A DNA stretch of 64,000 nucleotides, taken from the IMG/VR virus record IMGVR_UViG_3300045988_112172; one strand, 5' to 3'. This document shows, one piece after another, positions 8,488-60,376 of the stretch (within the stretch, counting starts at the first letter, position 1; every line of letters begins with the position of its first letter). This DNA comes from a virus. The notes below the pieces were generated by a model. It did not search any database, was not told the origin of the DNA, and saw nothing but the letters and a program-made list of their open reading frames with translations. Both the position numbers and the translations under genes were made by a program.

Positions 8488-10746
8488 ATGGGTGTCAAAT
8501 GTCAGATAGAAAAAAAGGAAAATGAAATAAAACGGGTTAAGGCTCCTAACGGGGAGCCTTCCGTCCTTTACGAAAGTGCTTTAAAAGTATTAGGAAACAG
8601 CGAGCGGGCTCTTCAGGTATGGGCTAAGGCTTACACTCCTGGTTTTTTGTCGTATTACGGTCATTGGAATAATCCGGCTCCAGGGGAGATATTTAATACC
8701 GATCCCAATGGCGAACCTCTTTTAGAAGACGTGCTGTCGTATATGAAGCGTCAGACTTATTTTGCTGATCCTTTAACGGCTCAGGACATTAAGGATGTAA
8801 GGGATTTCCTTTTGTCTACTCATTATTTTTTCAATGCGTCTTCATTGTCTAATGCTATTCTCTTCGATTTTTATGTAGATGGCAGTTTGATACTGAATGA
8901 GCAGAAATTAAGGAGATCCGGTTTGTATGATGAAACAGAGATAAGTCGTATTTTATCCGATCCTTCTGTTTTAAACGAGGTTTTGACTTCCATGAGAAAG
9001 TTAATAGATTCTTCTATTAACGAACATGATAGGGAAAAAGATAATTATTTTATGTCTATTGACTATCAGTATGGTCCTATTGTTTACAAGGAGGGAGTGT
9101 TTAACCAATTTGGTAAAAAGGTACCATATAATCCTTCTGAGCTTTATTATGCTATGCGTAAAACAGTAGCCGGCATAAAAAACTTTTCTGAATTTTCATC
9201 TGCTTTTGAATCGTTGAGAAATTCCTATCCTGAACTGGTTGAGAAATTCGTTTCTGATAAAGAATTTGCCGAATCTATGTTTGATGAGTTCTCATCTACG
9301 AATAAGATTCCGGTAATAAACATAGAAGGGGATGATGTGGTAGAAGGCAAGAGAAGATCCTTGTCTAAGTTACAAGATCTGTCTTATTACAATCCTGGCA
9401 AAATAGAGTTCCTAAGAGCTCGTATATCAGCTTATTTACATAGGGTTAATGCCGACACCGAATCCGATTTAAGAAGCATGATATGGGATATAGAAGAGGC
9501 TTGTACGTGGTTTGGCATAGATATAATAGGGACATCGGAAACTTATGATGGCACAGAAGAATCTTTGAATAAGATAGATAATTTGATGCTGGATCTTGAT
9601 ATTTATGTGGCCAGGCATAATGATGTAAATTATGCTCCAACGCTGGCATCTTCTATAGATGATGTTCTTGGTGATAGCACAGATTATTATTCTGAATTAT
9701 TGCCGGAGTATATGGATAATTTGAATATCGTTTATTCTGAATCCAATATAGACCCAGTAGAAGCGTTTGAGAAACATTCATTGCTTAAGGTAGGAGATAA
9801 TCTATATCAAAGGATCAGCAAAGATGATATTAACGAGATGTATCAAACATCAACAGTGTTAGCCAAGCACAACCTAACTCATTTTTCTACTAAAATATAT
9901 CCTGAATCTTGTTTTAAGAACGGCGTTTTGGATAAAGAGAAAGTACGGAACGTAGATAATAATACGCTCATGGATTCCATTAAAAAATACGTCAGATCGT
10001 TCATGGATTCTCAGAACACAGAGGACATGATAATGACCAGGATGGCGTTTGGGCACCCGGAGGTACTTGACGTTCCTTACGTGGATGTGGATCGGGAGTA
10101 TAGTCGATACATGAACAAAAAACAAGATAGCGAAAACCCATTATCCTTATTCGATTTATACCAATCTTACCTTGACAACAAACTCCATAAAACAAAATTA
10201 TATGATAATGCCTATAAGTATCTTGACTTCAAACCTGGTCCATCTTTGGGCCTTATTTCTGATGATCCTGATATTTTGAAATCAATAGAATTATCTTTAT
10301 CTGGAAAAGACAGGTTGATGTTGTTTGATTATAGCATGACCAGTACCGACCCTTCTTTATCAGAATTGTTTTATTTGGAGAAGTATGACCCTTCGTATGC
10401 CGGGAATGATTTTGAACACTATTTTTACACCAGGCACCCGTATTTGTTAAAAGAAAAATCGGGCCCTAATATCGTAGAGCAAGATGGTGTTATAACAGCC
10501 GAAGGTATTTATGATAATTTTATAAGAGTAGGTAATAAGATATGGTCTAAAGTAAGCGAGAGTAGTTCCGGCTCTATCTACCAAAATCTGACAGGAACCG
10601 AATCAGAGGTGAAATACGATTCTACTCAGAAGGCTAAGACGGTAGAAACCGATTACGCTCCATACCAAAACAGATCTGGCTTGACGCAAGACATGACCGT
10701 AAGCAAGTCTGAATTGGATGATCTTAACAAATTGGAATGCAGGTAA
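8488..10746 (+). CDS. large hypothetical virion or structural-block protein (752 aa)
   Basis: Long uninterrupted ORF, co-oriented with the giant genes and followed by a hairpin terminator. Confidence 0.8.
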   Translation: MGVKCQIEKKENEIKRVKAPNGEPSVLYESALKVLGNSERALQVWAKAYTPGFLSYYGHWNNPAPGEIFNTDPNGEPLLEDVLSYMKRQTYFADPLTAQDIKDVRDFLLSTHYFFNASSLSNAILFDFYVDGSLILNEQKLRRSGLYDETEISRILSDPSVLNEVLTSMRKLIDSSINEHDREKDNYFMSIDYQYGPIVYKEGVFNQFGKKVPYNPSELYYAMRKTVAGIKNFSEFSSAFESLRNSYPELVEKFVSDKEFAESMFDEFSSTNKIPVINIEGDDVVEGKRRSLSKLQDLSYYNPGKIEFLRARISAYLHRVNADTESDLRSMIWDIEEACTWFGIDIIGTSETYDGTEESLNKIDNLMLDLDIYVARHNDVNYAPTLASSIDDVLGDSTDYYSELLPEYMDNLNIVYSESNIDPVEAFEKHSLLKVGDNLYQRISKDDINEMYQTSTVLAKHNLTHFSTKIYPESCFKNGVLDKEKVRNVDNNTLMDSIKKYVRSFMDSQNTEDMIMTRMAFGHPEVLDVPYVDVDREYSRYMNKKQDSENPLSLFDLYQSYLDNKLHKTKLYDNAYKYLDFKPGPSLGLISDDPDILKSIELSLSGKDRLMLFDYSMTSTDPSLSELFYLEKYDPSYAGNDFEHYFYTRHPYLLKEKSGPNIVEQDGVITAEGIYDNFIRVGNKIWSKVSESSSGSIYQNLTGTESEVKYDSTQKAKTVETDYAPYQNRSGLTQDMTVSKSELDDLNKLECR

Positions 10747-14489: not shown

Positions 14490-15750
14490 TTATTTAACCA
14501 ATAAACCCACCATGCTTTAGAAGGTGGATGAATTGGTTTGATTAATTTTGAATCAAAATTACAGATAAAAAAAATGATTTCATACAAATACAACATCTAT
14601 CATTCCAAGAAAACGAAGTATCTTGACAAGATACTTCGCGAATGTTGTTTTGTATGGAATCATGCGTTATCTCTACAACGTAGGTATTACAAACTGTTTG
14701 GAAAATATATATCAATTGGTAAGATGAAGAAGCATTTTGCCAAAAGAATTAAAAGAAACTTGCTTCATTCTCAAACAACACAAGAGATACTTGAACGACT
14801 GGATGAATCTTACAATCGTTTCTTTAAAAGAAAATCAAAGAGACCTCCTAAGTTTAAAGGATCTGATTGCTTCAGCTCCTTTGTTTTTAAACAAGGAGGT
14901 TTTACTATAAATGGCAATATTCTCACAATAAACAAAGTAAAGAAACGTTTTAAGTTTTCATACAGTAGAGTCTATGAAGGTAATGTCAAACAAATTAGAA
15001 TAGTTAGAAAAACTTGCCATCGATATAGTTTGATTATAATTACAGATCATAATCATTCAAACTCTTATAGAAAGACACATAATGGTGCATCTATCGGATT
15101 GGATTTTGGGCTGAAAACTTATCTAACTAAAAGCGATGGTAGCAAAATCGATTCTCCATTATTCTTCAAAAAAATATCAAAACAAGATTAGAAAACTAAA
15201 CAAACGGCTTTCTAATGCAAAGAAAGGATCCAACAATAGAAGAAGGAGACTGTTTGAACTACAACAAACGTATCGTAAAATAAACGATCTTCGATCAGAT
15301 TTTCAATGGGGATTAGCACACCAGTTATGCAAACAGTATGATTATATTTTTATTGAAGATCTAAACATTGAAGGAATGAAACGTTTGTGGGGAAAGAAGG
15401 TTTCTGATCTTAGTCATTCTTCTTTTATTGATAAACTTACGTATGTTGCCTCAAAGTATGGAGTAACTGTACATAAGATTGACAAATGGTATCCTTCTTC
15501 CAAAACTTGTGAATGTGGCTGCATTAATAAAGGGCTGTCGTTACGCGACCGCACGTGGGTGTGCCCCTCGTGCGGCGCAATCAACGACCGTGATGTTCTT
15601 GCAGCCCGTAATATATTTCGGAAGGGCATTTCCGAATTGGAGAGTATGGGTAATTCCGATGGTAGTAATACCGAGGTTCCATACGTTTGTATCCAAGAAT
15701 CCCATAGCCTTTAGGCGTGGGAGTATGTCAAGATATGCTTGATTTTTAAC
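14490..15750 (+). mobile_element. IS200/IS605-family tnpB-only insertion element, copy 2, a different subfamily from copy 1
   Basis: TnpB ORF with a conserved 3' end and right-end region that recurs as a solo copy at 59.4 kb. It sits immediately upstream of the second giant gene. Boundaries are approximate. Confidence 0.65.
14538..15714 (+). pseudogene. tnpB: tnpB (IS605 OrfB family, with RuvC-II IFIEDLN and CxxC...CxxC zinc finger), frame-shifted in an A7 run near 15165-15171
   Basis: Part one ends in RuvC-I (IGLDFGLKTY). Part two carries the basic linker, IFIEDLN, CECGC...CPSCG and a RuvC-III NDRDVLAARNI motif. The two frames overlap at ttcaaaaaaatatc. Confidence 0.75.
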
Positions 15751-29245: not shown

Positions 29246-30265
29246 TCATCGTTTTATCTTTTTAGACGGATCCCAATCCGAAGAGAAAGGGCATTCGTTT
29301 TTGTTATGTAATCCAAAGTCACAATAATAACACAGTGCTGACGGGCAGGGTAGCTTGTTTTGCGAAACAGGCTGGCTTAGGGTGGCACGCCTCTTGCTAT
29401 ACCTGGTTCCTTCTGCTCCCTGGATGTATGCTTGAAATGCTTTTACACTATTATCTTCAAAATCATACATTTTAGACAAAGTGTCATTTAGCATCTCTAT
29501 AGATTTTGTTTTACGTTCCTCATCTACCTTAACCTTTTGGTACTGTCTGGTCCTGGTAAAGAAATAGATGTTCATATCTGGCAGAACTCCGCCATATCTT
29601 CTATAGATGTAAAATGAATATATAGGATGCTGTAAATTTGTTTCCAACTTCTTAGAGTCAAAAACCTTATTACCGGATTTCCAATCTATGACATAATGGT
29701 GAACTACGTTCTTGCTTTTTATAGCCAGATGAAGGTCTACCGATCCTACTATGTACACATGAGTATGAACGGTCCCATTTATATCAACAGGCTTAGGAAG
29801 ACGGTACGGCAGCACAAAATCTTCTTCGACTCCAACTATGGCGCCGTGTCTGATAAGTTTCTCGCAGGGATTAAGATCACTATCAGCTATCATAAACCTA
29901 TTGCCGTCTTTTTTGAACAGATCCACAATCCAAGCAAGAAGTTCCCCAGATTGCTTCATGGCCATCATCATATTTTCCGGTGATTGCCAAGGTATGTCCT
30001 CCTGGTAAGCATAGTAACTTATCGCTTCTCCAAGGTCTTTACCAGAAGGCTGTCTTCCGTTCTTAAAAAAGTATTCCAGTGTCTTATGGATAACCGTACC
30101 ATAAGACGTAGCTTCTTGTTTTTCCGTAGACCTTTTGCCCTCTACGTAAGTCTTATACCATTTCATTGGACAGGTAAGAAACGTATCTATCTGGGAATAA
30201 GATATGGCAAGACGTTTCACACCATTAAACTCCTTATATAGCAAATGCGTTTCCGGGACCATCAT
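29246..30265 (-). CDS. PD-(D/E)XK nuclease, Cas4/RecB-like, with a C-terminal Cys cluster (339 aa)
   Basis: VGSVDLH ... VIDWKSGN (motif II/III-like D ... D/ExK pattern) and a C-terminal CPSALCYYC ... C cluster, as seen in Cas4/AddB-type nucleases. Confidence 0.6.
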   Translation of the reverse strand: MMVPETHLLYKEFNGVKRLAISYSQIDTFLTCPMKWYKTYVEGKRSTEKQEATSYGTVIHKTLEYFFKNGRQPSGKDLGEAISYYAYQEDIPWQSPENMMMAMKQSGELLAWIVDLFKKDGNRFMIADSDLNPCEKLIRHGAIVGVEEDFVLPYRLPKPVDINGTVHTHVYIVGSVDLHLAIKSKNVVHHYVIDWKSGNKVFDSKKLETNLQHPIYSFYIYRRYGGVLPDMNIYFFTRTRQYQKVKVDEERKTKSIEMLNDTLSKMYDFEDNSVKAFQAYIQGAEGTRYSKRRATLSQPVSQNKLPCPSALCYYCDFGLHNKNECPFSSDWDPSKKIKR

Positions 30266-30609
30266 AAGTCATTGTCTTTAAATCCTTCCGGGTAATATAC
30301 GACATACTTCTTACCGTCTTCTGGTGTCATGGCAAACTGCATGTAGTTATTACGATTACGATGCTTGCCATCTAATCCTCGCTTCCAATACAGGATGCCG
30401 TCTATATCCACATAAGACCGTCCGCGTTCGGCTCTAACTACGTCCGTGTGTAGCAGATACCCGTCGGAAGACACAATCCATACTTTATCCCCTTTGTTTA
30501 AATAAGATATTCTTTTTCTTACAACAACCTTTTTCTTATTATCCAATACAAATTCCTCATCAGTCATACTCTTCATCCTCCTCTTCTTCTGTTTCAAAAT
30601 CAATTCCAT
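30262..30609 (-). CDS. hypothetical protein (115 aa)
   Basis: ORF with its stop overlapping the nuclease start. Confidence 0.55.
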   Translation of the reverse strand: MELILKQKKRRMKSMTDEEFVLDNKKKVVVRKRISYLNKGDKVWIVSSDGYLLHTDVVRAERGRSYVDIDGILYWKRGLDGKHRNRNNYMQFAMTPEDGKKYVVYYPEGFKDNDL

Positions 30610-30639: not shown

Positions 30640-31152
30640 TATTCGTATGTTTTAATACATCCCCTCGGAGACCTTTCGGTCTCCTTGGTAGATGTAAATC
30701 CCGTTAGGGATAAGTCAGGATTTCTCCTGTAAGTACCCATCGCCAATGTTATTTAAGGTTTTGAATAAGCAACACTGTTCCTGAATACCAGAACTGTTTA
30801 ATCACTTACCTTAGAGCTACAGACTTGGGCAAACATCCGTAGGTAACTATCTATTCTTAAATAACGTAGCCTTTGTTTCAAGGCTTAGGCTAATAACCCG
30901 ATCTCTTAAAGAGATGTATTAAACTTTTATAATAGAATTATATTGGTTTAATACTATTTGGGGTTATAACACTGATCATAATGATTGGTCAGTTCTTCTG
31001 GTTCTAAATCTTGTCCAAAATCCATGTTAAAAATATCGTAATTAGTAAAGCACTAAAAATCACTATTCCTGCTGGCATGAAATCTATAAATGCTGCTTTT
31101 GCTTCTTCAATTAGGCCCAAGTGTAACCTTGGGCCATTGTATTTATTTTTTG
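30640..31152 (+). ncRNA. candidate structured noncoding RNA (about 500 nt), antisense to the flanking gene block
   Basis: A 530-bp stretch with no ORF of 60 aa or more on either strand, inside an otherwise gap-free gene block. It is GC-richer than its surroundings. It has several perfect hairpins (GGAGACC-tttc-GGTCTCC, CAGGA-tttc-TCCTG, ATCTCTT-aa-AGAGAT, AGCCT ... AGGCT). It ends in a canonical plus-strand terminator (8-bp stem ggcccaag / cttgggcc at 31114-31135, followed by attgtatttattttttg). Confidence 0.4.
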
Positions 31153-44617: not shown

Positions 44618-45016
44618 CTAAACGGGAAGTTCCATCTCTCCATTTTCATCGCCTCCTGTCCATTCCTTAGAGGGGTTAGGGACAATATTTCCGTTTTTGT
44701 CATAGGAAAACACGCAATTCGTTTCCAGTTGATACTTAATAACAGGCACTTCTTCTACTATTTTATAACTCAAACATCTCTTCAGAACTTCCCTGATTTG
44801 ACTTTCCAAATCAGAAAGTGCTATACTATTGAAATATCCTTCGTTGCCTAATCTGTTTGTAGGTAATTTGATCCCATAAGAATGAATCTTATCCACATCT
44901 TCTTTTGACAAGGTAGTGGTAAACACCCCTTCTTTGGTGACATTCACTTTAGCAGTTACAGACAAACTGTTATTAGCGTTCTTTTCCGTTATATTTAGTG
45001 TTGTTAATGCTGCCAT
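44618..45016 (-). CDS. hypothetical protein (132 aa)
   Basis: ORF. Confidence 0.5.
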   Translation of the reverse strand: MAALTTLNITEKNANNSLSVTAKVNVTKEGVFTTTLSKEDVDKIHSYGIKLPTNRLGNEGYFNSIALSDLESQIREVLKRCLSYKIVEEVPVIKYQLETNCVFSYDKNGNIVPNPSKEWTGGDENGEMELPV

Positions 45017-45034: not shown

Positions 45035-45286
45035 TCAATTCGAATAAATATAATACATTCCTGCTTCATATACCTTATGTACATCAGGGTCATTCTTGTC
45101 TTCCGGTTCCAATTCACTCTCTTCACAAGTATAATCCCATTCAGAGTTGTAGTACATATCCTCGTCTGTTTTCTCCAAGGAACAATCTTTCATTAGATTC
45201 ATATTTTCTCCCCATACTGCAACTTCTTGTCGTTGCTCTTCTTCCGTCATAAGGGATATTTTGTCTTTTAATTCTTTCCAGGTCAT
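45035..45286 (-). CDS. small acidic protein (83 aa)
   Basis: ORF. Confidence 0.45.
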   Translation of the reverse strand: MTWKELKDKISLMTEEEQRQEVAVWGENMNLMKDCSLEKTDEDMYYNSEWDYTCEESELEPEDKNDPDVHKVYEAGMYYIYSN

Positions 45287-45310: not shown

Positions 45311-45694
45311 TTATTCTACATCAAAAAGCTGATCTAACACCAACAATTCCGCATTCATATCTTCATCTTTCGGGAAACGAACTTTTATATTTCCAAACTT
45401 AGATGTCTTAAACAAGATGTAGGGGTTCATATCTTCGGCAGTCACCGGCTTATATTCCTTAACTTCCGACATCTTGAGATACCAGTCACCTATTTTTACA
45501 AACCCAGAAAAGATAGAACACAGATGCGCTTTTACAGACTGTATCTCCTTTTTATCTTTGAAAGGTATAATTTCGTCCTTTCCCCTTATCCTGATTGACA
45601 AGAAAGGACGAATGTTATCTGTTTCATTTTGAAATTTGAAGCCTGTTATGGCTTGCTTGGGGATTCTTCTTCCCATTAATATAAAATAGCTCAT
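45311..45694 (-). CDS. hypothetical protein (127 aa), downstream partner of the ABC ATPase
   Basis: ORF. Confidence 0.5.
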   Translation of the reverse strand: MSYFILMGRRIPKQAITGFKFQNETDNIRPFLSIRIRGKDEIIPFKDKKEIQSVKAHLCSIFSGFVKIGDWYLKMSEVKEYKPVTAEDMNPYILFKTSKFGNIKVRFPKDEDMNAELLVLDQLFDVE

Positions 45695-45734
45695 TGTGAT
45701 AAGTTTATAAAAAAATGGTATATAATTACTTCAA

Positions 45735-46532
45735 TTAATTAGATGCAAATATGCTAATTTTGTTTAGATATCCTTCTGTCATCTCTATGAAATTCACACA
45801 ATCTAATTTGCTTAACTTGTAAATCAATGCCGGATTGTGTACTATGGCTATAATTTGCGTTTGTGGTTTATGGAATGACAATACATTATAAATTTGCATT
45901 ATATTGTCAATGTCAAGATTTCTGTCTGGCTCATCCATGAGAACCGTGTATTCAAAACTGCTTTCTGTTAATGTTATGCGGTTTCTTCCATAATACTTCA
46001 ACAGGTTATCAATTCTTTTAATCCAAAACGCATTTGATTTTTTCTTGTATTCTACAAGATCTTGTATTGGAAATGTATAATCCTTTTGACCGAACATTAA
46101 ATTGAAGAGTGATTCCAATGATAACACCACTTTCTCTCCATAAGATCTTCGAATATTATTCACATACAAATCGAAATTGCTGATGTTTTTCAATACGCTA
46201 TCTCGATTCATCTCCGCCGATGGCAATAAACGGAATACTTTCCCTGCATAATCAGATGATATGTCAATCCCATCAAGAACCTTGTCATCATCATCAAATA
46301 TAGGTGGAAAATCCAGCGCCTCAGCCGGCATTTCAGAGCACATGGACTTCTCGCATAACGCATACATTGATATGATGTTAAGCAAAGTTGTTTTTCCACT
46401 ACCGTTTTTACCTATAATTACATTCACTCCTGGCTTGAAAATAAATTCTTTACCATTTTCAAACGCTTCTATGTCCGAAGCATATTCAAATGGAGTTTTT
46501 GTATTGTCTTTTATTTTTACTGATGTTATCAT
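45735..46532 (-). CDS. ABC-type (AAA_21/SMC-like) ATPase (265 aa)
   Basis: Walker A VIIGKNGSGKTTLL, degenerate signature RRSYGEK, Walker B VLMDEPDRNLD and H-loop IAIVHNP. Too short for a transporter NBD with a canonical LSGGQ. It resembles small defence or abortive-infection-type ATPases. Confidence 0.65.
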   Translation of the reverse strand: MITSVKIKDNTKTPFEYASDIEAFENGKEFIFKPGVNVIIGKNGSGKTTLLNIISMYALCEKSMCSEMPAEALDFPPIFDDDDKVLDGIDISSDYAGKVFRLLPSAEMNRDSVLKNISNFDLYVNNIRRSYGEKVVLSLESLFNLMFGQKDYTFPIQDLVEYKKKSNAFWIKRIDNLLKYYGRNRITLTESSFEYTVLMDEPDRNLDIDNIMQIYNVLSFHKPQTQIIAIVHNPALIYKLSKLDCVNFIEMTEGYLNKISIFASN

Positions 46533-46543
46533 TGTAATCCTTT

Positions 46544-47050
46544 TTAAAAATCAATTACCGCCCGAACCATGTCTCCGATGTGCTTGTTGCCGGTGCCCGT
46601 GAGGCCACTGGAGAAGACCACGTACCACGCGACGGCCTGGCTGCTCTCAGTACTGGACCAATACCACGTCGAGGAGAGGGGAGATGCCGAAACATAAGCG
46701 AATGCTTTGTTTAGTTCGTTCATATAATGGGCCATTAAATTTAATTGACCAAGAGATGGTATATACTCGCCATCTTCCAGCAGATTTCTCAATTTTGGAT
46801 TTCTGGCTACAAGGCGTTCCGTATTGCCGCGTCCGTCAATGTCAAACAGCGCATCACATTCACGTTCGTAATATGTCCCACTTCCGGATTCTTCACGGCT
46901 ATCATCGTCAAGCAACCGTACACTATCATGCTCCGCCAATGAGATAGCAAACGATACGTCTTTGTGTTTTAATCCGATATAACGCACATTCTTTTTGAAA
47001 TTCTCTCCAGTAAACGGCTCAGCATGTCCGTTTCCGTAGATTAGATACAA
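46544..47050 (-). CDS. DUF1566 (Lcl C-terminal)-like domain protein (168 aa)
   Basis: The C-terminal segment SSTWYWSSTESSQAVAWYVVFSSG ... RAV matches the conserved W-rich pattern of DUF1566. Confidence 0.4.
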   Translation of the reverse strand: MYLIYGNGHAEPFTGENFKKNVRYIGLKHKDVSFAISLAEHDSVRLLDDDSREESGSGTYYERECDALFDIDGRGNTERLVARNPKLRNLLEDGEYIPSLGQLNLMAHYMNELNKAFAYVSASPLSSTWYWSSTESSQAVAWYVVFSSGLTGTGNKHIGDMVRAVIDF

Positions 47051-47332
47051 ACCATCTTTTCTTTTTTTACAAGCTTTTCCAATAATGGTTCTATGTTTTT
47101 GATTATATCTTCTTTGGTAAGGTGAAGTTCATTTAATATGAAGTTCCTTACCGCCTTGTATTCTTTACTTGCGCTCATAATATATCTACTTAATACTGTG
47201 AATTATATTTTTTCTCTCTCCCACTGTCTTCCCCTATAGGATTATTCCATCCGTATTTTACAGCCATAGCTTTAAATAGAGGAAGTCCATAAAATTTATA
47301 ATCATTCTCAGGATGAGCATATACTGTTGATT

Positions 47333-47996
47333 TCATTTCAGTTCTTTAATTAAAGCATCCGCATATATTACAGCTAATTCAGCCGCCTTATCACACGTCT
47401 CCAATATTAATTCACCGTGAGGTCCACGCCCTGATACGAGTGTGATCGGAAGCATGGTTTTTGCTATCTCGTATCTACGTTGTTCCCAATCTACATGGGT
47501 GTTACACGGTTCTTGATTGACCTGTATATATCTTCCTTCAATATTAGAAGATCTTAATGTTTCCGCATTCTCTTCGCCGAATGCGACCAGAATAGACCCA
47601 CATCCTGGACTTTCACCTATTGTTCCATCTTCTCTGTGGAATTTTATCCTTCCTTTCATGAACAATACACCTTTTGCTTTCGGGAATACAACATCCTGAA
47701 ACATCTTATTGTCAAGACGATTAAAAAGAAGAGCTATTCCATTATTGTGCTCTACCATACGAGTAATAAAATGCTCTATAGTCGGTCTTGAATAAGGTGG
47801 GTTTAACCATACCCCTTCCTTCCCATTTTTGTTTTAATCCATCTTGCTCTTTGTTATACATAACCCTGGCTGTCCTCCATAACGGACGCATAGGCGCACA
47901 TGGATCTAAATCAAATTCCCCTAAAGCGTCTATAATTTCTTTAGGTGTGTACCATTCATCTGTACTGTTTTTAGATTTCTCAAATGATGTATTCAT
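47333..47996 (-). pseudogene. Dam-like N6-adenine DNA methyltransferase (phage DNA N-6-adenine-methyltransferase family), split by a frameshift at a G4/C4 run (47812-47815); may be intact if the run length was miscalled
   Basis: The N-terminal ORF (47742-47996) has DEWYTPKEIIDALGEFDLDPCA, the hallmark of this methylase family. Translating the alternative frame across 47790-47830 gives VWLNPPYSRPTIEHFITRMVEHNNG, that is, an intact catalytic NPPY motif, which joins ORF 47333-47758. Confidence 0.6.
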
Positions 47997-48014
47997 ATAT
48001 CTATGTTTTATAAG

Positions 48015-48692
48015 TTAATCCCATCCTCCAGTAGTGTACAAAGATACATCTTCCTCCTCTACGTTTACACCTTTAATAGCCTGTAGAAGTTTTTTCTTTG
48101 TCTCCCGGCACATATTGTAACCATATCCTTTATACCGATATGAGCGTTCCCATGTGCTTACTGGAAAAGGAATATTTTCATCAATGACCAGTCTCTTCAT
48201 ATGAAGATGTTCGAAGAATTTCTCATGGTAGAGTAGTTTGTACTCGTATGCTACTATACTTGCAGATGAGAATGGAAAATAATCATCTTCCTCTTCTTCG
48301 TATTCCTCTTCTTCGTATTTAGGCTCCTTGTAGTAAGCCATTTTTGCCACAGTAAAGTCGAAGCTCCTGAGAATCTCTTCTGGCTTTCCGAACTCTGACT
48401 CTATGAACTCTCCCCATACCTTTTCTCCCTCTTTCTGGAATGCGCATACCTTCTCATTCCTGTACTTAAATTTCCATCCTTCTTTCTGATGTTTTTCATC
48501 ATTGAACAAATCAACAGCTTCCTGAAAATCGTCTTCGCTTTCAAAGAAAATATCAATGTCTTTTACTCTTTCTCCGGAAAGGATATTTTTAAAACATCCA
48601 CCAGCTATGAATCCTTTGTGGCCTTCCATATACTTGTCAAGCCATCTTATTTGCCAGAAATTATCTGGAGTATCTATTACAAAATTATTCAT
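48015..48692 (-). CDS. minimal nucleotidyltransferase-fold protein (Pol-beta-like or SMODS-like) (225 aa)
   Basis: GFIAGGCFKNILSGERVKDIDIFF fits the NTase hG[GS]x9-13Dh[DE]h signature. A third acidic residue lies in SFDFTVAKM. It is adjacent to the methyltransferase. Confidence 0.55.
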   Translation of the reverse strand: MNNFVIDTPDNFWQIRWLDKYMEGHKGFIAGGCFKNILSGERVKDIDIFFESEDDFQEAVDLFNDEKHQKEGWKFKYRNEKVCAFQKEGEKVWGEFIESEFGKPEEILRSFDFTVAKMAYYKEPKYEEEEYEEEEDDYFPFSSASIVAYEYKLLYHEKFFEHLHMKRLVIDENIPFPVSTWERSYRYKGYGYNMCRETKKKLLQAIKGVNVEEEDVSLYTTGGWD

Positions 48693-49449: not shown

Positions 49450-49820
49450 TATCCAAAGTTTTTTAATATTGCTCCAAACGAATCATATTTAATCCCTAAT
49501 GTATCATGTGCCTTTTGGGATCCACATTCACATTCACCAACTCTTGCGCCGGACCCACACTCGCATAAGTCTATTCCCCAATGGTTGACGCAGTGGTTGC
49601 AGCAGCAGGACTGGTGAAGCCATGTGGCATCACCAGCATCCAAATCCAATTTTTCAAATGTTTCCCAAAACATGCTATTCGAAGCACCATTATCAAAGCT
49701 GATAGTGACTGCGCCGCATTTACATTTTTGTATGTATTCTATTTTCATATATGTTCCATTTTCAAAATTTCTGGGGATAGATATTCTTGTAACTCCAATT
49801 TGCGTATTGGGACAAGACAA
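49449..49820 (-). CDS. Cys-rich protein (123 aa)
   Basis: CKC ... CCCNHC ... CEC ... CEC; overlaps the upstream gene by about 75 nt, so the real start is probably internal. Confidence 0.4.
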   Translation of the reverse strand: MSCPNTQIGVTRISIPRNFENGTYMKIEYIQKCKCGAVTISFDNGASNSMFWETFEKLDLDAGDATWLHQSCCCNHCVNHWGIDLCECGSGARVGECECGSQKAHDTLGIKYDSFGAILKNFG

Positions 49821-50191
49821 TCCAGATGTTTAGCGTCCATTTCTTGCCTATTCTCATCTACCCACATTAAAGTATCTTTACTGCTACATTCTGGGCATTT
49901 GTCAGCTCCACATGGAAGAAGCATTTGTGCTCCACATAAGACACATCTTACCCAGTCTCCGTGCTGCACCCCTTCGTATGTTCTTGTTTTCATATTTGTC
50001 ATTTTATCATTTACAACTTTCACTTCTTCGCTCCACAAACGTCTCTTATATATCGGAGTGATGCCGATCAGAATACCACTATCTTCACCCCAATACTGAA
50101 GTGTTTTGGACTCAATTTTATGATGCAATTCCTGTATTCCTCCTTTGTTTCTGTCATAAGGATAAAAATCAGATAATTTTACCATTTTCAT
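49745..50191 (-). CDS. zinc-ribbon protein (148 aa)
   Basis: CVLCGAQMLLPCGADKCPEC. Confidence 0.5.
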   Translation of the reverse strand: MKMVKLSDFYPYDRNKGGIQELHHKIESKTLQYWGEDSGILIGITPIYKRRLWSEEVKVVNDKMTNMKTRTYEGVQHGDWVRCVLCGAQMLLPCGADKCPECSSKDTLMWVDENRQEMDAKHLDCLVPIRKLELQEYLSPEILKMEHI

Positions 50192-50925
50192 TTTTCTGGA
50201 TTTTCAGTAGTTCCTAAAAGACATTCATTACCCTCAAAATGAATACAATAATCCCATAATGTTCCATTGGAACATTCGTACTTATAAGGCAATCCATTAT
50301 AATCGTCCACAATTTCCCTTGCAAACAAACTGATATTCCATTTTTTATTTCCTTCTTTTCTTACCAGCACTTTGTCAAACGGCTTAAAATCATATTTCAG
50401 CTTTTCTTCAATCCCGAAGAAGCGTTTCAGATACTCTTTAGCTTCAGGTTCTTTGCTTGCCTTTAATGCGTCAACCAACTTTTGTCTTTCGGATTCAGTG
50501 GCAAATCTGTATTTTTCTATCTTATTTTCCCAAGCAGATAAACCATCTTCTATTTTAAGAATACCTTTTTGATTTAAAGAGGCATAAAAAAACGTTAAAT
50601 ATTTCCCATGTGTATTTAAAATAAAGATATAGCTACCATCTTTATTACTTAACACCTCTCCATCTTTAAACGTAGTATATTCTGGAACTTCAAGAAGGAG
50701 TCGATTTGCGCTGCTAAGTGCTTTTCCTGTAGCAGAAAACCAGTCTGCCGATACAGAAATCGAATGAATTACAACCAATAACGGACAATTTGACGAATTG
50801 TCTTCATATACGATTTCTGCTCTATTTTGTCCTTTCTCTGTCACAATACGACCTGCTATTTCCCCTATGTTTATTTTTTTCGCCGTTTCTAAATCAAACG
50901 GGATTGTTACTGTTTTCTGTTCCAT
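50188..50925 (-). CDS. hypothetical protein, paralog A (245 aa)
   Basis: Same length and colinear similarity with 51273-52010 (PFDLETAKKI / PFDLNTARKI; FKPFDKVLVRK / LKPFERVLVRR; C-terminal YECSNG ... C ... EGNECLLGT / YECLGG ... C ... EGNEHLLGT). Confidence 0.6.
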   Translation of the reverse strand: MEQKTVTIPFDLETAKKINIGEIAGRIVTEKGQNRAEIVYEDNSSNCPLLVVIHSISVSADWFSATGKALSSANRLLLEVPEYTTFKDGEVLSNKDGSYIFILNTHGKYLTFFYASLNQKGILKIEDGLSAWENKIEKYRFATESERQKLVDALKASKEPEAKEYLKRFFGIEEKLKYDFKPFDKVLVRKEGNKKWNISLFAREIVDDYNGLPYKYECSNGTLWDYCIHFEGNECLLGTTENPEK

Positions 50926-51272
50926 AATCTTATTTGTTTTAGTAATTATATACTATTTTACGACATCTATGTTATAAAACATACGAATGATAATTAATTT
51001 CATATTCTTCTTTTCTAACTTTGTTTTACTCAATCGAATCAATAAGTCCCTTGTTTCGGACAAGACGGTTGAGTAAAAGAGGTCTTTGATATAAGGTTCC
51101 GTCTTGAAAACGTAAGATGGGTAAAATCAAAAACGTTTTTTAGTAAAAGAATCCGGCGATCTCACTTTTGAGCAATCGGTAGAGGGTATTGGTGATACCC
51201 AGTATGATGCTTCGTACAAATGTATATCATTTTTCATCTTTGATATAAAATGGTGTATAATCACCTTAGTTC

Positions 51273-52010
51273 CTAAAAATGTTTGTTAGTTCCTAAAAGA
51301 TGTTCATTCCCTTCGTATGGGATACATTGACTAAATCCTACCCCTCCTAAGCATTCGTATTTATTATCTCCTCCTGATTCTCTGGAAAATAGATGCACTT
51401 TCCATCTCTCTTGGTTATTTCTTCTCACCAGCACTCGTTCAAATGGTTTGAGGTCGTGTTTCGGCATCTCATCTAATAGATACTCATATTCACTTAAATA
51501 TCGTTTTATTATATCTACCTTTCTACTGTCTTCGGCTTTTATAATCTTTTCTGCTAAAAATTTCTTCTCTTCCTCTATAGCCTTTCTTACATGCCGTTTT
51601 TTATATCCGTCATACACATTAGTCCATAATTTGCAATCAAACCCAATATCTCCAAATGATGCCATTCCGCATATACATCCCATTACCCCTTTGGTAATAA
51701 TACCATTATATATAAATGGGTTCCCAAGCGTGCTTATTAATACATCTCCTTTCTTAAAATACGCTCCAGCCTCTACTTCCAATTCCAGATCGTTGTTGAA
51801 AAAAGTACGACCTTCTGTATCGGCATATATAGCACTTATCCCAGATTCATCTTTTTTTACAAAAAGTAAATTATAACGATCTGCACAGTCTTTTGACTCA
51901 TATACAAATTCTATTTTAATATTACCAATTAATACTGAACCTTCTATTTCTCCGCTTTTAATTTTTCTCGCCGTATTTAAATCAAACGGAACAACAATTG
52001 GATTTTCCAT
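51273..52010 (-). CDS. hypothetical protein, paralog B (245 aa)
   Basis: Paralog of 50188-50925 (see that entry). Confidence 0.6.
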   Translation of the reverse strand: MENPIVVPFDLNTARKIKSGEIEGSVLIGNIKIEFVYESKDCADRYNLLFVKKDESGISAIYADTEGRTFFNNDLELEVEAGAYFKKGDVLISTLGNPFIYNGIITKGVMGCICGMASFGDIGFDCKLWTNVYDGYKKRHVRKAIEEEKKFLAEKIIKAEDSRKVDIIKRYLSEYEYLLDEMPKHDLKPFERVLVRRNNQERWKVHLFSRESGGDNKYECLGGVGFSQCIPYEGNEHLLGTNKHF

Positions 52011-58280: not shown

Positions 58281-59090
58281 TTAAATACTTAACTCTTCAA
58301 TGGTCAAGCCTTTTTCTTTTGCCCACTTTAGCATCGCGCATAATTCTGTTTCTGACTTATATTTCGGATCACGCCACGCCCATCCGAATTTATCCAGGAC
58401 ATGATGATATAATTCGTCGGCCTTTGCCGTGTAAATGTCTTTGAATAAATGCTCCGAACCTTCCGGTATAAGCATCTCTGTTGTTGCAAAATCGGAATAC
58501 GATAAACATCCGTAAGCATATTCTGTTATTTCACTCCATGCTTCTCCGGCTTTAAATCCAAATTCTTTTACAAAAGCCAAAGTTAGATACATATTTAATA
58601 ATATTGTTACATCATATCCGGAATCCGACTTTCTTTCTATTATTTCCTTTTCAAATTCCTTTAAATCTTCAGGTCCTAAAAAGATGTATCCTGATACCGA
58701 CCGGTAATTAGTCTCCGCATACTTCTTGCATTTATCATCATTGACAATCTTACTAATGTTAGATAACATCTTTTGCCTCCATTCATCACAAAACTCTACC
58801 TCTACGTTCATCCAATCAGTACCATAATTATATTCTTTCGGATATCCGACCGATGTTACCTTTATACTATTCACGCCATATCCGTAAAGGCGTTCACTTA
58901 CCTCATTCGCCCATTCCTGTACAAAAGGAATAAACTTATTGTAATAAGAATCAAAATCAAAATCTAATTCCTCCTCATATTCCGGCATCTCTTCATAATC
59001 CTGTTCAAAGAAATGACGAGGATCTGCTATTGTTTCGTAGAAACTTACGTTAATGAAACAAAACTCGTTGGTTGTCGTTTTTAATATCAT
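58281..59090 (-). CDS. hypothetical acidic protein (269 aa)
   Basis: ORF. Confidence 0.55.
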   Translation of the reverse strand: MILKTTTNEFCFINVSFYETIADPRHFFEQDYEEMPEYEEELDFDFDSYYNKFIPFVQEWANEVSERLYGYGVNSIKVTSVGYPKEYNYGTDWMNVEVEFCDEWRQKMLSNISKIVNDDKCKKYAETNYRSVSGYIFLGPEDLKEFEKEIIERKSDSGYDVTILLNMYLTLAFVKEFGFKAGEAWSEITEYAYGCLSYSDFATTEMLIPEGSEHLFKDIYTAKADELYHHVLDKFGWAWRDPKYKSETELCAMLKWAKEKGLTIEELSI

Positions 59091-59341
59091 AACTTTTTGT
59101 ATTTACGTACATTTTTCTTGCCATAGAATCTACACATGGCACGAATCTGACTATAAAATACTTTTGTCCTCCTGGCCTCAAAGTATTTAAACATTTCTTC
59201 ATTCTTTGTTTCCCAAACGTAATCCGTTTGGGAACTCATGCGATCTTTCTCCTTGCGTGAATAATGGTAATATGATACCACAACACGTTTCATACCATTC
59301 TTTACAGGTACGATATTTACGTCTATACTATTCTCTGTCAT
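59087..59341 (-). CDS. hypothetical protein (84 aa)
   Basis: ORF. Confidence 0.45.
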   Translation of the reverse strand: MTENSIDVNIVPVKNGMKRVVVSYYHYSRKEKDRMSSQTDYVWETKNEEMFKYFEARRTKVFYSQIRAMCRFYGKKNVRKYKKL

Positions 59342-59419
59342 ATTATTATTGTTTTATGTTATTTAATGGTAATACTGATCCCATTTATGTGTCAGATGAT
59401 AATTAAACATTATATTTGC

Positions 59420-59549
59420 CCTGTCTTGCGACCTCGGAAGGGCATTTCCGAGTTGGAAAGTACGGGTGATTCCAACGATTGTAAAACCGGGGGTTCCGTA
59501 CGTTTGTATCCAAGAATCCCGTTTGCTTTAGCGATGGGAGTATGTCAAG
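59420..59549 (+). mobile_element. solo remnant of the IS605-family tnpB 3' end plus right end (omega-RNA/reRNA-like scaffold), related to tnpB copy 2
   Basis: About 80% identity over roughly 105 nt to 15628-15732 (tcggaagggcatttccga[a/g]ttgga ... gttcc[a/g]tacgtttgtatccaagaatccc ... gggagtatgtcaag). The only coding potential is a relic of the TnpB C-terminus (RKGISELES.G.S); no tnpB body is present. Confidence 0.65.
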
Positions 59550-59651
59550 CATTATACAAATACAAAGAGCGCATACCTTCACAGGCCGGCGCTCCTTTCA
59601 ATAAAAATGAAAAAACTAATATTACATAAACATATTGTTTTCTACTCTTTA

Positions 59652-59885
59652 TTACAATACTTTTGTTCCGCAATTATTATATCTTCCGTACTCTTTTTTC
59701 GTATCATTCAAGATTTCAAAAACCATCTTCTTGTGATCTTCGTTTGGTAACCTATCCTTAACAGCCGATATTACGCCCACTATAGACGTAAAGCCTGAAT
59801 CTGTTATTGAACACAGCAACACGCCTCTGTCGGCTCCGGTGCTTATTGCTGACGCCTTTATAATATCATTCTTATATATTCTCAT
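59652..59885 (-). CDS. hypothetical protein (77 aa)
   Basis: ORF whose start lies 21 nt downstream (in minus-strand sense) of T-arm-like motif 1. Confidence 0.45.
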   Translation of the reverse strand: MRIYKNDIIKASAISTGADRGVLLCSITDSGFTSIVGVISAVKDRLPNEDHKKMVFEILNDTKKEYGRYNNCGTKVL

Positions 59886-59906
59886 AACTTTTTTGTTTTA
59901 TTGTTT

Positions 59907-59985
59907 GTGAGATGCCCAGAATCGAACCAGGACCGGCACATACGCACCGGCACGCCGCGTCATCCCCCTATATGATACAGAAATA
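59907..59985 (-). other. tRNA-like element 1 (T-arm plus acceptor-3'-like motif; cloverleaf not confirmed)
   Basis: The minus-strand sequence reads ...CCTGGTTCGATTCTGGGCATCTCAC, a T-stem-loop with the TTCGATT loop. I could not pair a canonical 5' acceptor strand by hand, and the only candidate gives a roughly 61-nt molecule. Confidence 0.3.
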
Positions 59986-60061
59986 GGCATGCCTATCCTC
60001 ACGAACCGACATGCCAAAACCCAAAACTTAATTTGATGAATAAAATAGATTAACAAAAATA

Positions 60062-60376
60062 CTATTCTAATTCTTTTATAATATCTTTCACAATATTCAG
60101 CCTTACCTCCTTCGTTTCTGGACTAAGACAACCAAACCACCCATAAAACGTTCTTGTTTCCTCTGGTTCTGTGGCCATACTTATCTTCTCCTCCAATTCC
60201 GGGAAATATATTCTCACCATTTCGTCTGAACGAAACTCATAGATATTTTTATGTGTTTTGAAATACATAAACACTACATTTCTTAACGCAACACATATGT
60301 ATTCCCCATCCTCTAACCTATCAATCATCTCATATACCTTTTTCCATATGAATAATCGCTCTTCTTTTGTAAACAT
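60062..60376 (-). CDS. hypothetical protein (104 aa)
   Basis: ORF. Confidence 0.45.
   Translation of the reverse strand: MFTKEERLFIWKKVYEMIDRLEDGEYICVALRNVVFMYFKTHKNIYEFRSDEMVRIYFPELEEKISMATEPEETRTFYGWFGCLSPETKEVRLNIVKDIIKELE

Follow-up and report, generated by a model that had tools for sequence, protein, structure and literature searches.

A probable mosaic of early accessory genes in an epsilon crAss-like gut phage, including a putative short-form Gad2 nucleotidyltransferase and a DGR-type variable region

DUF1566 is a target domain of diversity-generating retroelements (DGRs). Gad2 (Gabija anti-defence 2), found in Bacillus phage SPbetaL7 and in a Brevibacillus laterosporus prophage, is an anti-Gabija protein that has been verified experimentally (Yirmiya et al., bioRxiv 10.1101/2023.05.01.538930). 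The phage crAssE-Sib (OR575929.1), an epsilon crAss-like phage (Babkin et al. 2024, PMC11054128), showed 94.6% DNA identity to the window, that is, the whole stretch of 64,000 nucleotides analyzed here (IMG/VR virus record IMGVR_UViG_3300045988_112172), and the window is itself from an epsilon crAss-like gut phage ('Epsilonunovirus'). Within positions 45311-48692, all coding was on the minus strand (Table 1). A previous sequence-only reading had placed its genes correctly; its "four consecutive genes" and the ORF beside them stood as to position, but the 48- and 45-aa ORFs were not listed. For this interval we describe the gene anatomy, two lesions, the family assignments, population frequencies, and selection regimes of the genes, and a DGR signature with a remote template; the biochemical roles of all of the genes are what we infer.

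Table 1. Features of the interval and their coordinates in the window
Feature	Position	Strand	Remarks
127-aa protein (p127), matches no family	45311..45694	-	dN/dS 0.055
ABC-type ATPase, 265 aa, intact, stand-alone	45735..46532	-	AAA_21, AAA_23; starts 11 nt past the Lcl_C stop codon
Lcl_C/DUF1566 C-type-lectin-like gene, C-terminal fragment, 168 aa, TTG start	46544..47050	-	phrog_4245 4e-9
DGR-type variable-region core, 26 codons	46568..46645	-	anchors 46646-46663 and 46544-46567 conserved
Lcl_C/DUF1566 gene, N-terminal fragment, 45 aa	47041..47178	-	deletion junction ~47063/47064, within 47052-47070
48-aa ORF	47190..47336	-	ATGA overlap between its start and the stop codon of Dam
Phage Dam-family N6-adenine DNA methyltransferase, frameshifted	47333..47996	-	extra G at 47812-47815
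Nucleotidyltransferase, 225 aa, intact	48015..48692	-	Gad2 family (PF26128), short form; class-II CCA/poly(A)-polymerase head-domain fold

Presence/absence matrices were prepared from 80 ATPase-anchored loci and from 65 loci obtained via an independent anchor. Using the latter, the ATPase was present in 58/65 relatives, p127 in 51, the full Lcl_C gene in 47, the nucleotidyltransferase in 43, an alternative 145-aa gene in 26, and Dam in 12. Phages of ~74-107 kb contained the same genes in another order, with the ATPase missing. The interval is probably a mosaic early-gene accessory array, and not one defence module. A synteny comparison had been advised to see whether the block is variable cargo. 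The stretch proved to be a variable mosaic, with Dam at the low frequency given above, but the ATPase is near-core and not cargo.

The nucleotidyltransferase had been recognized as a minimal enzyme with the hG[GS]...DhD signature, and this was confirmed: in an alignment of 24 sequences G31, G32, D45, D47, and D112 were invariant, and the catalytic motif (GG...DxD) and the third carboxylate were both intact. The protein matched phrog_4400 at 3.4e-63, and its dN/dS value was 0.09. Assignment to Gad2 was based on precomputed PF26128 ('Gad2') matches on homologues of 55-98% identity and on our own alignments, in which identity was 22%: BLASTP against the verified B. laterosporus Gad2 homologue gave an E value of 3e-10 (residues 22-207 against 22-177), and hhalign a probability of 96.7%. 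By these sequence comparisons, the protein belongs to the Gad2 family. Both are phage-borne and contain a Pol-beta-type nucleotidyltransferase domain, in which four motifs were colinear: IAGG...D.D.(F/Y)F, P.EI...FDFTV, H.(D/K)F..H...(K/Q)(R)L, and (F/Y)P..S..R..(Y/K)Y..(K)GY. On the other hand, Gad2 has 394-400 residues and the window protein 225; the match ends at about residue 177-180, and the C-terminal ~215 residues that complete the full-length (~400 aa) Gad2 architecture are missing, so that the window protein corresponds to the catalytic, N-terminal half of Gad2 alone. The host of the window phage would also be of the Bacteroidales type, whereas that of Gad2 belongs to the Firmicutes.

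In the structural comparison by Foldseek, the top 34 matches were all class-II tRNA nucleotidyltransferases or poly(A) polymerase (PAP), with E values of 1.9e-5 to 1e-3 and TM scores of ~0.5 (query-normalised) over the head and part of the neck. The possibility of nucleotide-signal manipulation by an enzyme of the CD-NTase/SMODS type, raised in the sequence-only reading, was not upheld: DncV, CdnD, and MenT all gave E values above 0.1 (0.18-0.42 for DncV and CdnD across ~95-127 columns) against 1.9e-5 for class II, and PADLOC returned no CD-NTase match for this protein. The predicted head fold resembled that of the Aquifex A-adding (4wc2/1vfg) and Thermotoga CCA-adding (3h37) enzymes and E. 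coli PAP (3aqm), with GG...DxD and DFT motifs in common. An alternative is an RNA 3'-end enzyme instead of a Gabija inhibitor, which would tail or CCA-add tRNA as part of a phage RNA-repair toolkit against host tRNA nucleases. In addition to the A-adding, CCA-adding, and poly(A) polymerase folds being the nearest solved ones, the invariant FDFT resembles class-II motif B (RRDFT); crAssE-Sib codes for a polynucleotide kinase/3'-phosphatase, an NrnA-like phosphodiesterase, a Ro60-related protein, and six tRNAs, and its orthologue is annotated as 'polyA polymerase / CCA-adding enzyme'; and CCA-adding enzymes are included in phage RNA repair (PMC7824862). We nevertheless consider this alternative unlikely: the protein (225 aa) lacks the tRNA-holding body and tail domains of enzymes with 350-420 residues and both arginines of motif B, the Pfam PolyA_pol score of 13.5 bits did not reach the cut-off of 23, no match to PDB sequences emerged from a profile search, and the likeness in sequence is to Gad2. 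Only a fold resembling the class-II head is present. Since the mechanism of Gad2 is unsolved (PMC12904381), the RNA-end and anti-Gabija readings may both hold.

The adjacent gene had been read as a DNA N6-adenine methyltransferase. The Dam domain was real after repair, but the gene was not one ORF: an extra G (GGGG against GGG in 17 relatives) divided it into ORFs 47742-47996 and 47333-47758. This G was located just before the NPPY motif (47792-47803), which no longer shared the frame of the start codon; no uninterrupted frame therefore runs through (D/N)PP(Y/F). The N-terminal fragment alone scored 20.6 bits against PF05869 (cut-off of 28.1), and the 220-aa protein repaired by removing one G scored 55.2 bits, with further matches to phrog_111 (1.2e-41) and the PADLOC profile 'oMTase' (5e-11). 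This repaired protein was 96-98% identical to the copies of relatives, which were mostly intact 220-aa ORFs (the gene was intact in 16 of the 18 relatives compared), and contained EWYTP, DLDPC, and NPPY as in the phage Dam family (PF05869; TIGR01712, phage_N6A_met). It differed from that family in its score for TIGR01712 (40.2 bits against an equivalog cut-off of 97), a ~70-aa C-terminal extension (phrog_28300), and the frameshift. Dam was present in 18-24% of relatives, and its synonymous divergence was ~10-fold lower than that of neighbour genes; the gene is recent, minority cargo. In relatives without Dam, its slot was filled by the alternative 145-aa gene, and the 48-aa ORF of the window was homologous to the C-terminal tail of that gene (Sib145 residues 107-145 matched 47309-47193). 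The window contained 223 GATC sites (O/E of 0.78) and thus did not avoid this sequence, an observation that says little on the specificity of Dam. Anti-restriction by methylation, as had been proposed, is plausible for this variable cargo, but the methylase is broken in the present genome.

The Lcl_C gene was cut by an out-of-frame deletion of 202 nt at the junction given in Table 1; the full gene encodes 278-284 residues in relatives, and all close relatives had ~202 additional nt at this site. Pfam Lcl_C (formerly DUF1566, PF07603; cut-off of 34.9) scored 22.7 for the window fragment and 21.8 for the full-length crAssE-Sib protein, while many full-length homologues with 82-90% identity carried a precomputed PF07603 match, and a related 1132-aa target protein of phage L171 passed with 36.9 bits. 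The ORF described as a "DUF1566-like protein" represents the 3' remnant of a gene cut by this deletion. The gene would encode a cytoplasmic C-type-lectin-like binding protein. The gene is non-structural and lies in the early region, and by eye the N-terminus was not signal-peptide-like.

Fifty-two other ORFs common to the window and crAssE-Sib were each uninterrupted in frame, and a split in one further ORF was the normal state in 35 relatives; the two lesions therefore look real and not like the product of generally poor sequencing. On the other hand, because both are private to this sequence, they may be artefacts of sequencing or assembly, with the methylase and the lectin-like gene intact in the real phage. 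Among 2.9 million IMG/VR contigs, neither the exact frameshifted Dam sequence nor the junction sequence of the Lcl_C deletion was found in any other contig; furthermore, the Dam lesion alters a homopolymer run by one base, and in another gene of crAssE-Sib a homopolymer likewise differed by one base. An artefact is nonetheless doubtful in view of the unbroken frames of the 52 common ORFs, a clean deletion of 202 nt that is atypical of assembly error, independent inactivating-type changes of Dam at the same spot in two other genomes (+1 A, 12 nt upstream, in L015; NPPY to NPPH in L031), and the relaxed constraint on Dam (dN/dS of 0.36).

The DUF1566-like gene also contained a DGR-type variable region, overlooked in the previous reading. 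This stretch had a G+C content of 56.7% (window, 37.6%) and 31 DNA alleles in 136 loci, and its pN/pS was 1.1-2.0 against 0.3-0.46 for the remainder of the gene. At least eight codons were of the NNC form, the third base being invariably C, and variation was adenine-specific (AAC to NNC); this variation and the C-terminal scaffold YWSSTE.S...AW.V.FS.G...VR.V are shared with DGR targets containing DUF1566/Lcl_C. A matching template repeat and reverse transcriptase were found only in other gut phages. In L171, a reverse transcriptase (RVT_1, 6e-11) adjoins the template, which differed from the two variable regions of that phage at template adenines only, within the repeat; the homologous gene in L171-type phages is a true remote target of this cassette. 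Between the L171 template and the 31 epsilon-phage alleles, 32 adenine sites accounted for 444 mismatches and 46 other sites for 129. The epsilon phages differed from L171 in that the sequence after GTTCGGGCGGT (presumed homing signal) was not the same, and nothing like the downstream inverted repeat of L171 was seen in the 11 nt that precede the ATPase start in the window. The window copy also carries the deletion, unlike DGR targets in general. No cognate template repeat was found in the window, within 6-10 kb at 142 Epsilonunovirus loci, or in the searched 150 kb of crAssE-Sib (which has its own DGR with an unrelated template), and no epsilon-type template in JGI metagenomes; a cognate template and reverse transcriptase were thus lacking from the sequences searched. 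Differing variable regions on near-identical backgrounds, a sign of ongoing diversification, were not observed: where the flanks of two loci differed at fewer than 20 of 1118 nt, their variable regions differed at no more than two sites, and alleles co-varied with their flanks. A diversity-generating retroelement would have diversified the C-terminal pocket of the Lcl_C protein, whose variable region appears to be an orphan, a fossil, in this lineage.

The ATPase agreed with its earlier description as ABC/AAA_21-like: AAA_21 and AAA_23 scored 36.6 and 35.6 bits, respectively (cut-off of 27 for each), and Walker A, the S-x-G-E signature, Walker B (DEPD), the D-loop, and the H-loop were invariant in an alignment of 20 sequences. 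Members of this family were stand-alone phage proteins of ~245-300 residues; homologues with 50-65% identity had unrelated neighbours, and no conserved partner gene was found across the family. Unlike AriA (PARIS), PtuA (Septu), GajA (Gabija), mad3 (MADS), and retron ATPases, the window protein is single-domain and has no effector or partner (there is no Toprim, HNH, or other effector, whether fused or in a neighbouring gene, such as those of PARIS, Septu, Gabija, and OLD), is phage-encoded, and is equally similar to the nucleotide-binding domains of transporters. PADLOC detected only generic ATPase-domain and 'orphan methyltransferase' profiles in the interval, without system partners. Judging from its motifs, this stand-alone ABC ATPase would be catalytically intact, and its family is phage-specific.

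The ORF downstream of the ATPase, p127, is genuine and strongly constrained (dN/dS in Table 1), with no match in Pfam, PHROGs, PADLOC, NCBIfam, or PDB. It had been proposed as the partner of the ATPase in an abortive or superinfection-exclusion module, and the comparison of relatives spoke against this: the spacer between the two genes ranged from 15 to 832 nt (15, 43, ~312-325, and ~786) with 0-2 inserted ORFs, p127 was missing from 12 ATPase loci, and it occurred without the ATPase in another phage group (L175, L176). p127 is a gene in its own right, rather than a partner of the ATPase. One coherent module for defence, abortive infection, or superinfection exclusion, in which the ABC ATPase acts with p127 downstream or with the lectin-like protein upstream, is improbable also because the block contains no partner of the nuclease, Toprim, or HNH type, the matches lay mainly in the P-loop region and were no better than those to transporter ATPases, p127 and the Lcl_C gene occurred in L175, L176, and L171, where the ATPase is missing, distant phages had the ATPase without p127 and without the Lcl_C gene, and the ATPase remained where the Lcl_C gene was replaced (58 against 47 of the 65 loci). 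The lectin-like gene was separated from the ATPase by 11 nt (stop to start codon) in the window and by 14-15 nt in nearly all Epsilonunovirus relatives (from tblastn hit boundaries), a spacing that may point to a functional pair in these phages. That this pair is a phage sensor and ATPase against host defences or rival phages, its pocket re-diversified in trans by a co-resident L171-type DGR, seems remote. The DNA scaffold of the L171-type template repeat is near-identical to that of the orphan variable region, and the L171-type phage has other accessory genes in common at 90-97% DNA or protein identity.

For the mosaic array, five unlinked genes would have been gained, lost, and swapped independently across gut phage lineages. 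The proposal that these genes are defence or counter-defence cargo survived in part: it is supported as counter-defence for the nucleotidyltransferase, a Gad2 homologue, and plausible for the methylase, but nothing tied the ATPase or the lectin-like gene to either. A Dam-family orphan N6-adenine methylase would pre-emptively methylate phage DNA against restriction, and the +1 frameshift would inactivate it in this genome. The Pol-beta-type active site of the nucleotidyltransferase (GG...DxD and the Asp of FDFT) would transfer nucleotides to a nucleic-acid or small-molecule substrate, and, as judged from its homology to Gad2, an anti-Gabija role may be assigned to this protein, which would be an early counter-defence enzyme of the phage, blunting Gabija-like immunity.

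The DNA at 44.5-49.5 kb of the window matched a single GenBank phage, OR575929.1 (151 kb, human gut; spelled 'csAssE-Sib' in the record, referred to as crAssE-Sib), at 94.6% identity and 75% query coverage, and approximately 52 of the 64 kb were colinear with this genome, from its 85 kb position to its end. Babkin et al. 2024 (PMC11054128) assign crAssE-Sib to the epsilon crAss-like phages, within the proposed genus Epsilonunovirus; the terms 'methyltransferase', 'nucleotidyltransferase', 'polyA', 'AAA ATPase' and 'DUF3988' do not occur in the text of that paper. From 22.4 to 64 kb, only the minus strand of the window was coding. Genes for replication (helicases, a DnaB-like helicase and exonucleases) were located at 26-40 kb, and no tRNA genes were found within the 64-kb window. 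The studied interval lies in a long run of small genes transcriptionally upstream of the replication genes, which is the early or accessory region. Epsilon crAss-like phages are abundant and uncultured in the human gut virome and, to our knowledge, their early genes are essentially without annotation.

Genes and open reading frames of the studied interval, in order of transcription
Feature	Start to end	Strand	Length	Order and remarks
Nucleotidyltransferase	48692 to 48015	-	225 aa	First
Dam-like gene	47996 to 47333	-		Second; two frames
48-aa ORF	47336 to 47190	-	48 aa	Third
45-aa ORF	47178 to 47041	-	45 aa	Fourth; N-terminal piece of lectin-like gene
'DUF1566-like' ORF	47050 to 46544	-	168 aa	Fifth; TTG start
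ABC ATPase	46532 to 45735	-	265 aa	Sixth
127-aa ORF (p127)	45694 to 45311	-	127 aa	Last

The sequence-only reading had described this interval as an accessory island of four genes with domain types of defence and counter-defence cargo. This was confirmed in part, and its interpretation was supported in part: the nucleotidyltransferase and ATPase were intact, and the other two (Dam and DUF1566-like) were pseudogenes. Rather than a module, the interval is a mosaic in which the accessory genes are independent of one another, and every piece of it is a new member or short variant of an already known kind.

The best PHROG match of the nucleotidyltransferase was phrog_4400 (unknown function; 3.4e-63), Pfam PolyA_pol was under its cut-off, and neither the single sequence nor a profile matched any PDB sequence. 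In the AlphaFold model (mean pLDDT 73.9), residues 1-120 were confident and the C-terminus was poor. Since the best 34 Foldseek matches of this model against the PDB were all class-II tRNA nucleotidyltransferases or poly(A) polymerase (top E 1.9e-5), while MenT, DncV and CdnD gave E > 0.1, a CD-NTase identity was ruled out, and the proposed role in nucleotide-signal manipulation was not borne out. PF26128 ('Gad2') was precomputed on homologues of this protein. Gad2 is a 400-aa anti-Gabija protein from Bacillus phage SPbetaL7 with a predicted nucleotidyltransferase domain, and its homologue from a Brevibacillus laterosporus prophage cancelled Gabija defence (bioRxiv 10.1101/2023.05.01.538930). 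Using the verified B. laterosporus sequence (Supplementary Table 10 of bioRxiv 10.1101/2023.05.01.538930) as the reference, similarity was obtained with BLASTP (E 3e-10, covering Gad2 residues 22-177) and with hhalign using a 24-sequence profile (probability 96.7%). The two proteins had colinear catalytic and flanking motifs; the C-terminal half of Gad2 was missing from the window protein. This short form is widespread: it was found in 97 cultured-phage records, among them phages of Bacteroides fragilis (at 56% identity), Streptococcus thermophilus and Bacillus cereus, and in 864 protein clusters from metagenomes. Among the epsilon relatives, it was present in 43 of 65 (counted with an independent anchor), with a dN/dS value of 0.09. 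These alignments place the intact nucleotidyltransferase in the Gad2 family, which has a proven counter-defence member, and the counter-defence reading stood to this extent. Since crAssE-Sib also has a polynucleotide kinase/phosphatase, an NrnA-like enzyme, a Ro60-related protein and tRNAs, an RNA-end activity is a live alternative, and one that could be compatible with the Gad2 assignment.

The N-terminal ORF of the Dam-like gene (84 aa) contained EWYTP and DLDPC, then read '...KWEGRGMVKPTLFKTD...' and stopped, and the neighbouring frame of the same DNA ('VWLNPPYS...') was open for 141 codons. When one G was taken out of the GGGG run at 47812-47815, a 220-aa protein was obtained that matched PF05869 (55.2 bits; cut-off 28.1), phrog_111 'DNA methyltransferase' (1.2e-41) and PADLOC 'orphan methyltransferase' (5e-11), and was under the TIGR01712 equivalog cut-off. 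In IMG/VR, 18 related contigs encoded a protein 96-98% identical to the repaired Dam, uninterrupted in all except one (L015), and 17 of them had GGG at the position of the window's GGGG. The copy in L015 (~4337-4997) was frameshifted independently, by an additional A within an A-run lying 12 nt upstream of the extra G, and in a second contig (L031, ~4332-4991) the catalytic NPPY was changed to NPPH. Dam was intact in 16 of the 18 relatives. Of the 19 copies compared, three (that of the window included) had changes of an inactivating type in the catalytic motif or immediately ahead of it. Programmed frameshifting was rejected because 16 relatives encode Dam as one ORF containing GGG; the exact frameshifted sequence was found in no IMG/VR contig.

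The synonymous divergence of Dam among relatives was low (mean dS 0.03, vs 0.19-0.41 for five other genes measured) and its dN/dS was relaxed (0.36), a combination that fits recent spread as a cassette. Three states were found at this slot: Dam with the 48-aa ORF, an unrelated 145-aa gene (the tail of which is the 48-aa ORF), or neither gene. Dam was present in 12 of 65 relatives when an independent anchor gene was used, and in about 18 of 80 ATPase-anchored loci; it behaved as the variable cargo that had been proposed. A divergent Dam-like gene (70% identical) was observed in another slot, downstream of the ATPase, in one relative (L026, 7796-8275). crAssE-Sib lacks Dam and has a Dcm-type methylase, while in the window Dam is broken and Dcm is absent. 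This Dcm-type C5 methyltransferase gene (crAssE-Sib 113296-114423) was cleanly absent at ~24562/24564 of the window, where both flanking genes are adjacent, and therefore the methylase content of the two genomes differs at two separate loci. Within this phage group, methylase genes are cargo that varies from strain to strain. It is plausible that Dam serves as an anti-restriction methylase, as proposed, yet the copy in the window is frameshifted and dead.

The second pseudogene is the DUF1566-like (lectin-like) gene. Every close relative had ~202 more bases between 47064 and 47063 of the window, and the gene was one ORF of 278-284 aa in these phages. The deletion joined GTAAAAA to AAGAAAAGATGG and shifted the frame, leaving the 45-aa N-terminal and 168-aa C-terminal fragments, and the junction was absent from IMG/VR contigs. 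Pfam Lcl_C (formerly DUF1566) gave 22.7 bits on the window fragment, under the 34.9 threshold, and PF07603 was precomputed on many homologues; the crAssE-Sib label 'DUF3988' was not reproduced with hmmscan, and the full-length protein had no PDB sequence match.

Both lesions, the Dam frameshift and the 202-nt deletion, were private to the window sequence, and for this reason we keep a minority but appreciable probability that they are artefacts. On the other hand, the assembly was not generally frameshift-prone, because 52 ORFs common to the window and crAssE-Sib were in a single frame, and the one other apparent split (49745-50925; two ORFs of 245 and 148 aa with an ATGA overlap) was the same in 35 relatives. 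The corresponding 393-aa fusion ORF of crAssE-Sib (138777-139958; L001 ~9151-10332) arose from one extra A (A6 vs A5); the split is thus the normal two-gene state, and crAssE-Sib is the odd one.

The last ~45 residues of the lectin-like protein were hypervariable between copies otherwise 85-95% identical, and 136 loci yielded 31 DNA alleles of this region. Of the 26 core codons (46568-46645 of the window), at least 8 were NNC with an invariant third C, and the intervening codons (TGG, GCG, GTG, TTC, TCC, GGC and ACG) were almost fixed. This AAC-to-NNC pattern is the hallmark of a diversity-generating retroelement (DGR). The pN/pS value was 1.1-2.0 in the variable core vs 0.3-0.46 in the remainder of the gene, and G+C was 56.7% in the variable stretch vs 37.6% in the window. 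Searches of the window, of 142 related loci and of 150 kb of crAssE-Sib revealed no second copy of the repeat. crAssE-Sib has its own DGR (43.8-47.8 kb; tail-fibre target), which was rejected as the template source since its template repeat was unrelated (local alignment score of 13).

Using a pattern built from the inferred template, a template repeat was found in an IMG/VR contig, L171, and the same repeat in three more viral contigs. Six metagenome contigs matched the pattern, with the template adjoining a reverse transcriptase in four (contigs of 13-95 kb); a strict pattern with the epsilon-type 3' end was not found in JGI metagenomes. In L171, the template repeat is part of a classical DGR cassette, preceded by a 1132-aa Lcl_C target and a 154-aa ORF and followed by a reverse transcriptase (RVT_1, 6e-11). 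A homologue of the lectin-like gene located ~9 kb away in L171 (77.6% identical over the last 85 aa; DNA identity of 90% over 246 nt) had a variable region that departed from the template, within the repeat, at template adenines only, which identifies it as a true remote target. When the L171 template was compared with the 31 epsilon-phage alleles, 444 mismatches were at 32 adenines and 129 at 46 other positions. The sequence following GTTCGGGCGGT differed between the epsilon copies and L171, and an inverted repeat lies 3' of the L171 stop codon, where the window has just 11 nt before the ATPase start. Ongoing diversification was looked for in pairs of epsilon genomes with near-identical flanks and was not seen: their variable regions differed at no more than two sites. 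With no template found in the lineage, a different 3' sequence and alleles that track their flanks, the epsilon variable region is read as an orphan fossil: its alleles would have arisen through a DGR acting elsewhere or at an earlier time, and would now move together with the flanking sequence. The lectin-like gene is accordingly a fossil DGR target, and in the window it is also dead. It is very improbable that the lectin-like protein and the ATPase form a sensor pair re-diversified in trans by the DGR of another phage.

Phages of ~74-107 kb contained the same 280-aa lectin-like gene together with homologues of p127 and of the neighbouring 132-aa protein (44618-45016); their gene order was different and the ATPase was absent. 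The accessory genes common to DGR-carrying and epsilon crAss-like phages suggest that both groups draw on one gene pool and, probably, that their hosts overlap. A 289-nt stretch of L171 (4636-4924) was 97% identical to crAssE-Sib 132858-133146, and a homologue (94%) of the 83-aa protein of the window (45035-45286) was observed in another contig (L181, 6982-7230). Two short gut metagenome contigs (L179, ~164-270; L184, ~887-993) contained a VR-type copy of the repeat with a VR-type 3' end, followed by a PcfK-like gene; all diversifiable codons in these copies were still AAC or AAT, and they look undiversified.

The ATPase exceeded the cut-offs of Pfam AAA_21 and AAA_23, its ABC motifs were all invariant in homologues down to 50% identity, and its dN/dS was 0.14. 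It was present in 58 of 65 relatives (independent anchor) and did not behave as variable cargo. A profile search of 1.84 billion representatives yielded 184 clusters at E <= 1e-30, mostly full-length stand-alone proteins of about 245-300 aa with shorter fragments as the remainder; they lay within arrays of small phage genes, and no neighbour recurred between these contexts. The proposed pairing with p127 also failed: the spacer was 15, 43, about 312-325 or about 786 nt depending on the relative, and p127 was missing at 12 ATPase loci. p127 had no match in Pfam, PHROGs, PADLOC, NCBIfam or PDB, and both proteins are conserved unknowns. In crAssE-Sib, the lectin-like gene and the ATPase are separated by a ~320-nt segment with a 73-aa ORF. 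The same segment was observed at 50946-51267 of the window, between paralogous 245-aa genes (50188-50925 and 51273-52010; 30% identical), and seems to represent a small mobile ORF.

Several other features of the window were observed. CTAG occurred once in 64 kb vs about 108 expected (maximal-order Markov; O/E 0.01), GGCC was at O/E 0.52, and GATC (223 sites; O/E 0.78) was not avoided. Since CTAG is the recognition site of BfaI-type enzymes of Bacteroides, its scarcity may reflect restriction avoidance, or may be tied to TAG codon usage. A HEARO RNA (Rfam RF02033), which is associated with IscB/HNH ORFs, was matched over the full model at 30729-30967 (-) with 112.9 bits (gathering score 83). 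No IscB-sized ORF was found directly downstream, the next minus-strand ORF being 30262-30609 (115 aa), and the match may represent an OMEGA-type RNA that is orphaned or a remnant. The sequence at 14570-15736 matched the TnpB-family transposase gene of crAssE-Sib (58963-60129) with just 76% identity, at another genomic position and in the opposite orientation, and looks like a mobile TnpB element.

At least three phage lineages share a non-structural lectin-like protein with a DGR variable region, and just one of them has the template and reverse transcriptase; this distribution is a possible case of inter-phage gene flow, or of diversification in trans. The small stand-alone ABC ATPases of phage early regions comprise at least 184 clusters at 50% identity, none with an assigned function. 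Since the mechanism of Gad2 was still given as unknown in a 2026 review (PMC12904381), a Gad2 of 200-225 aa consisting of the catalytic domain only could make the biochemistry of this family easier to approach.
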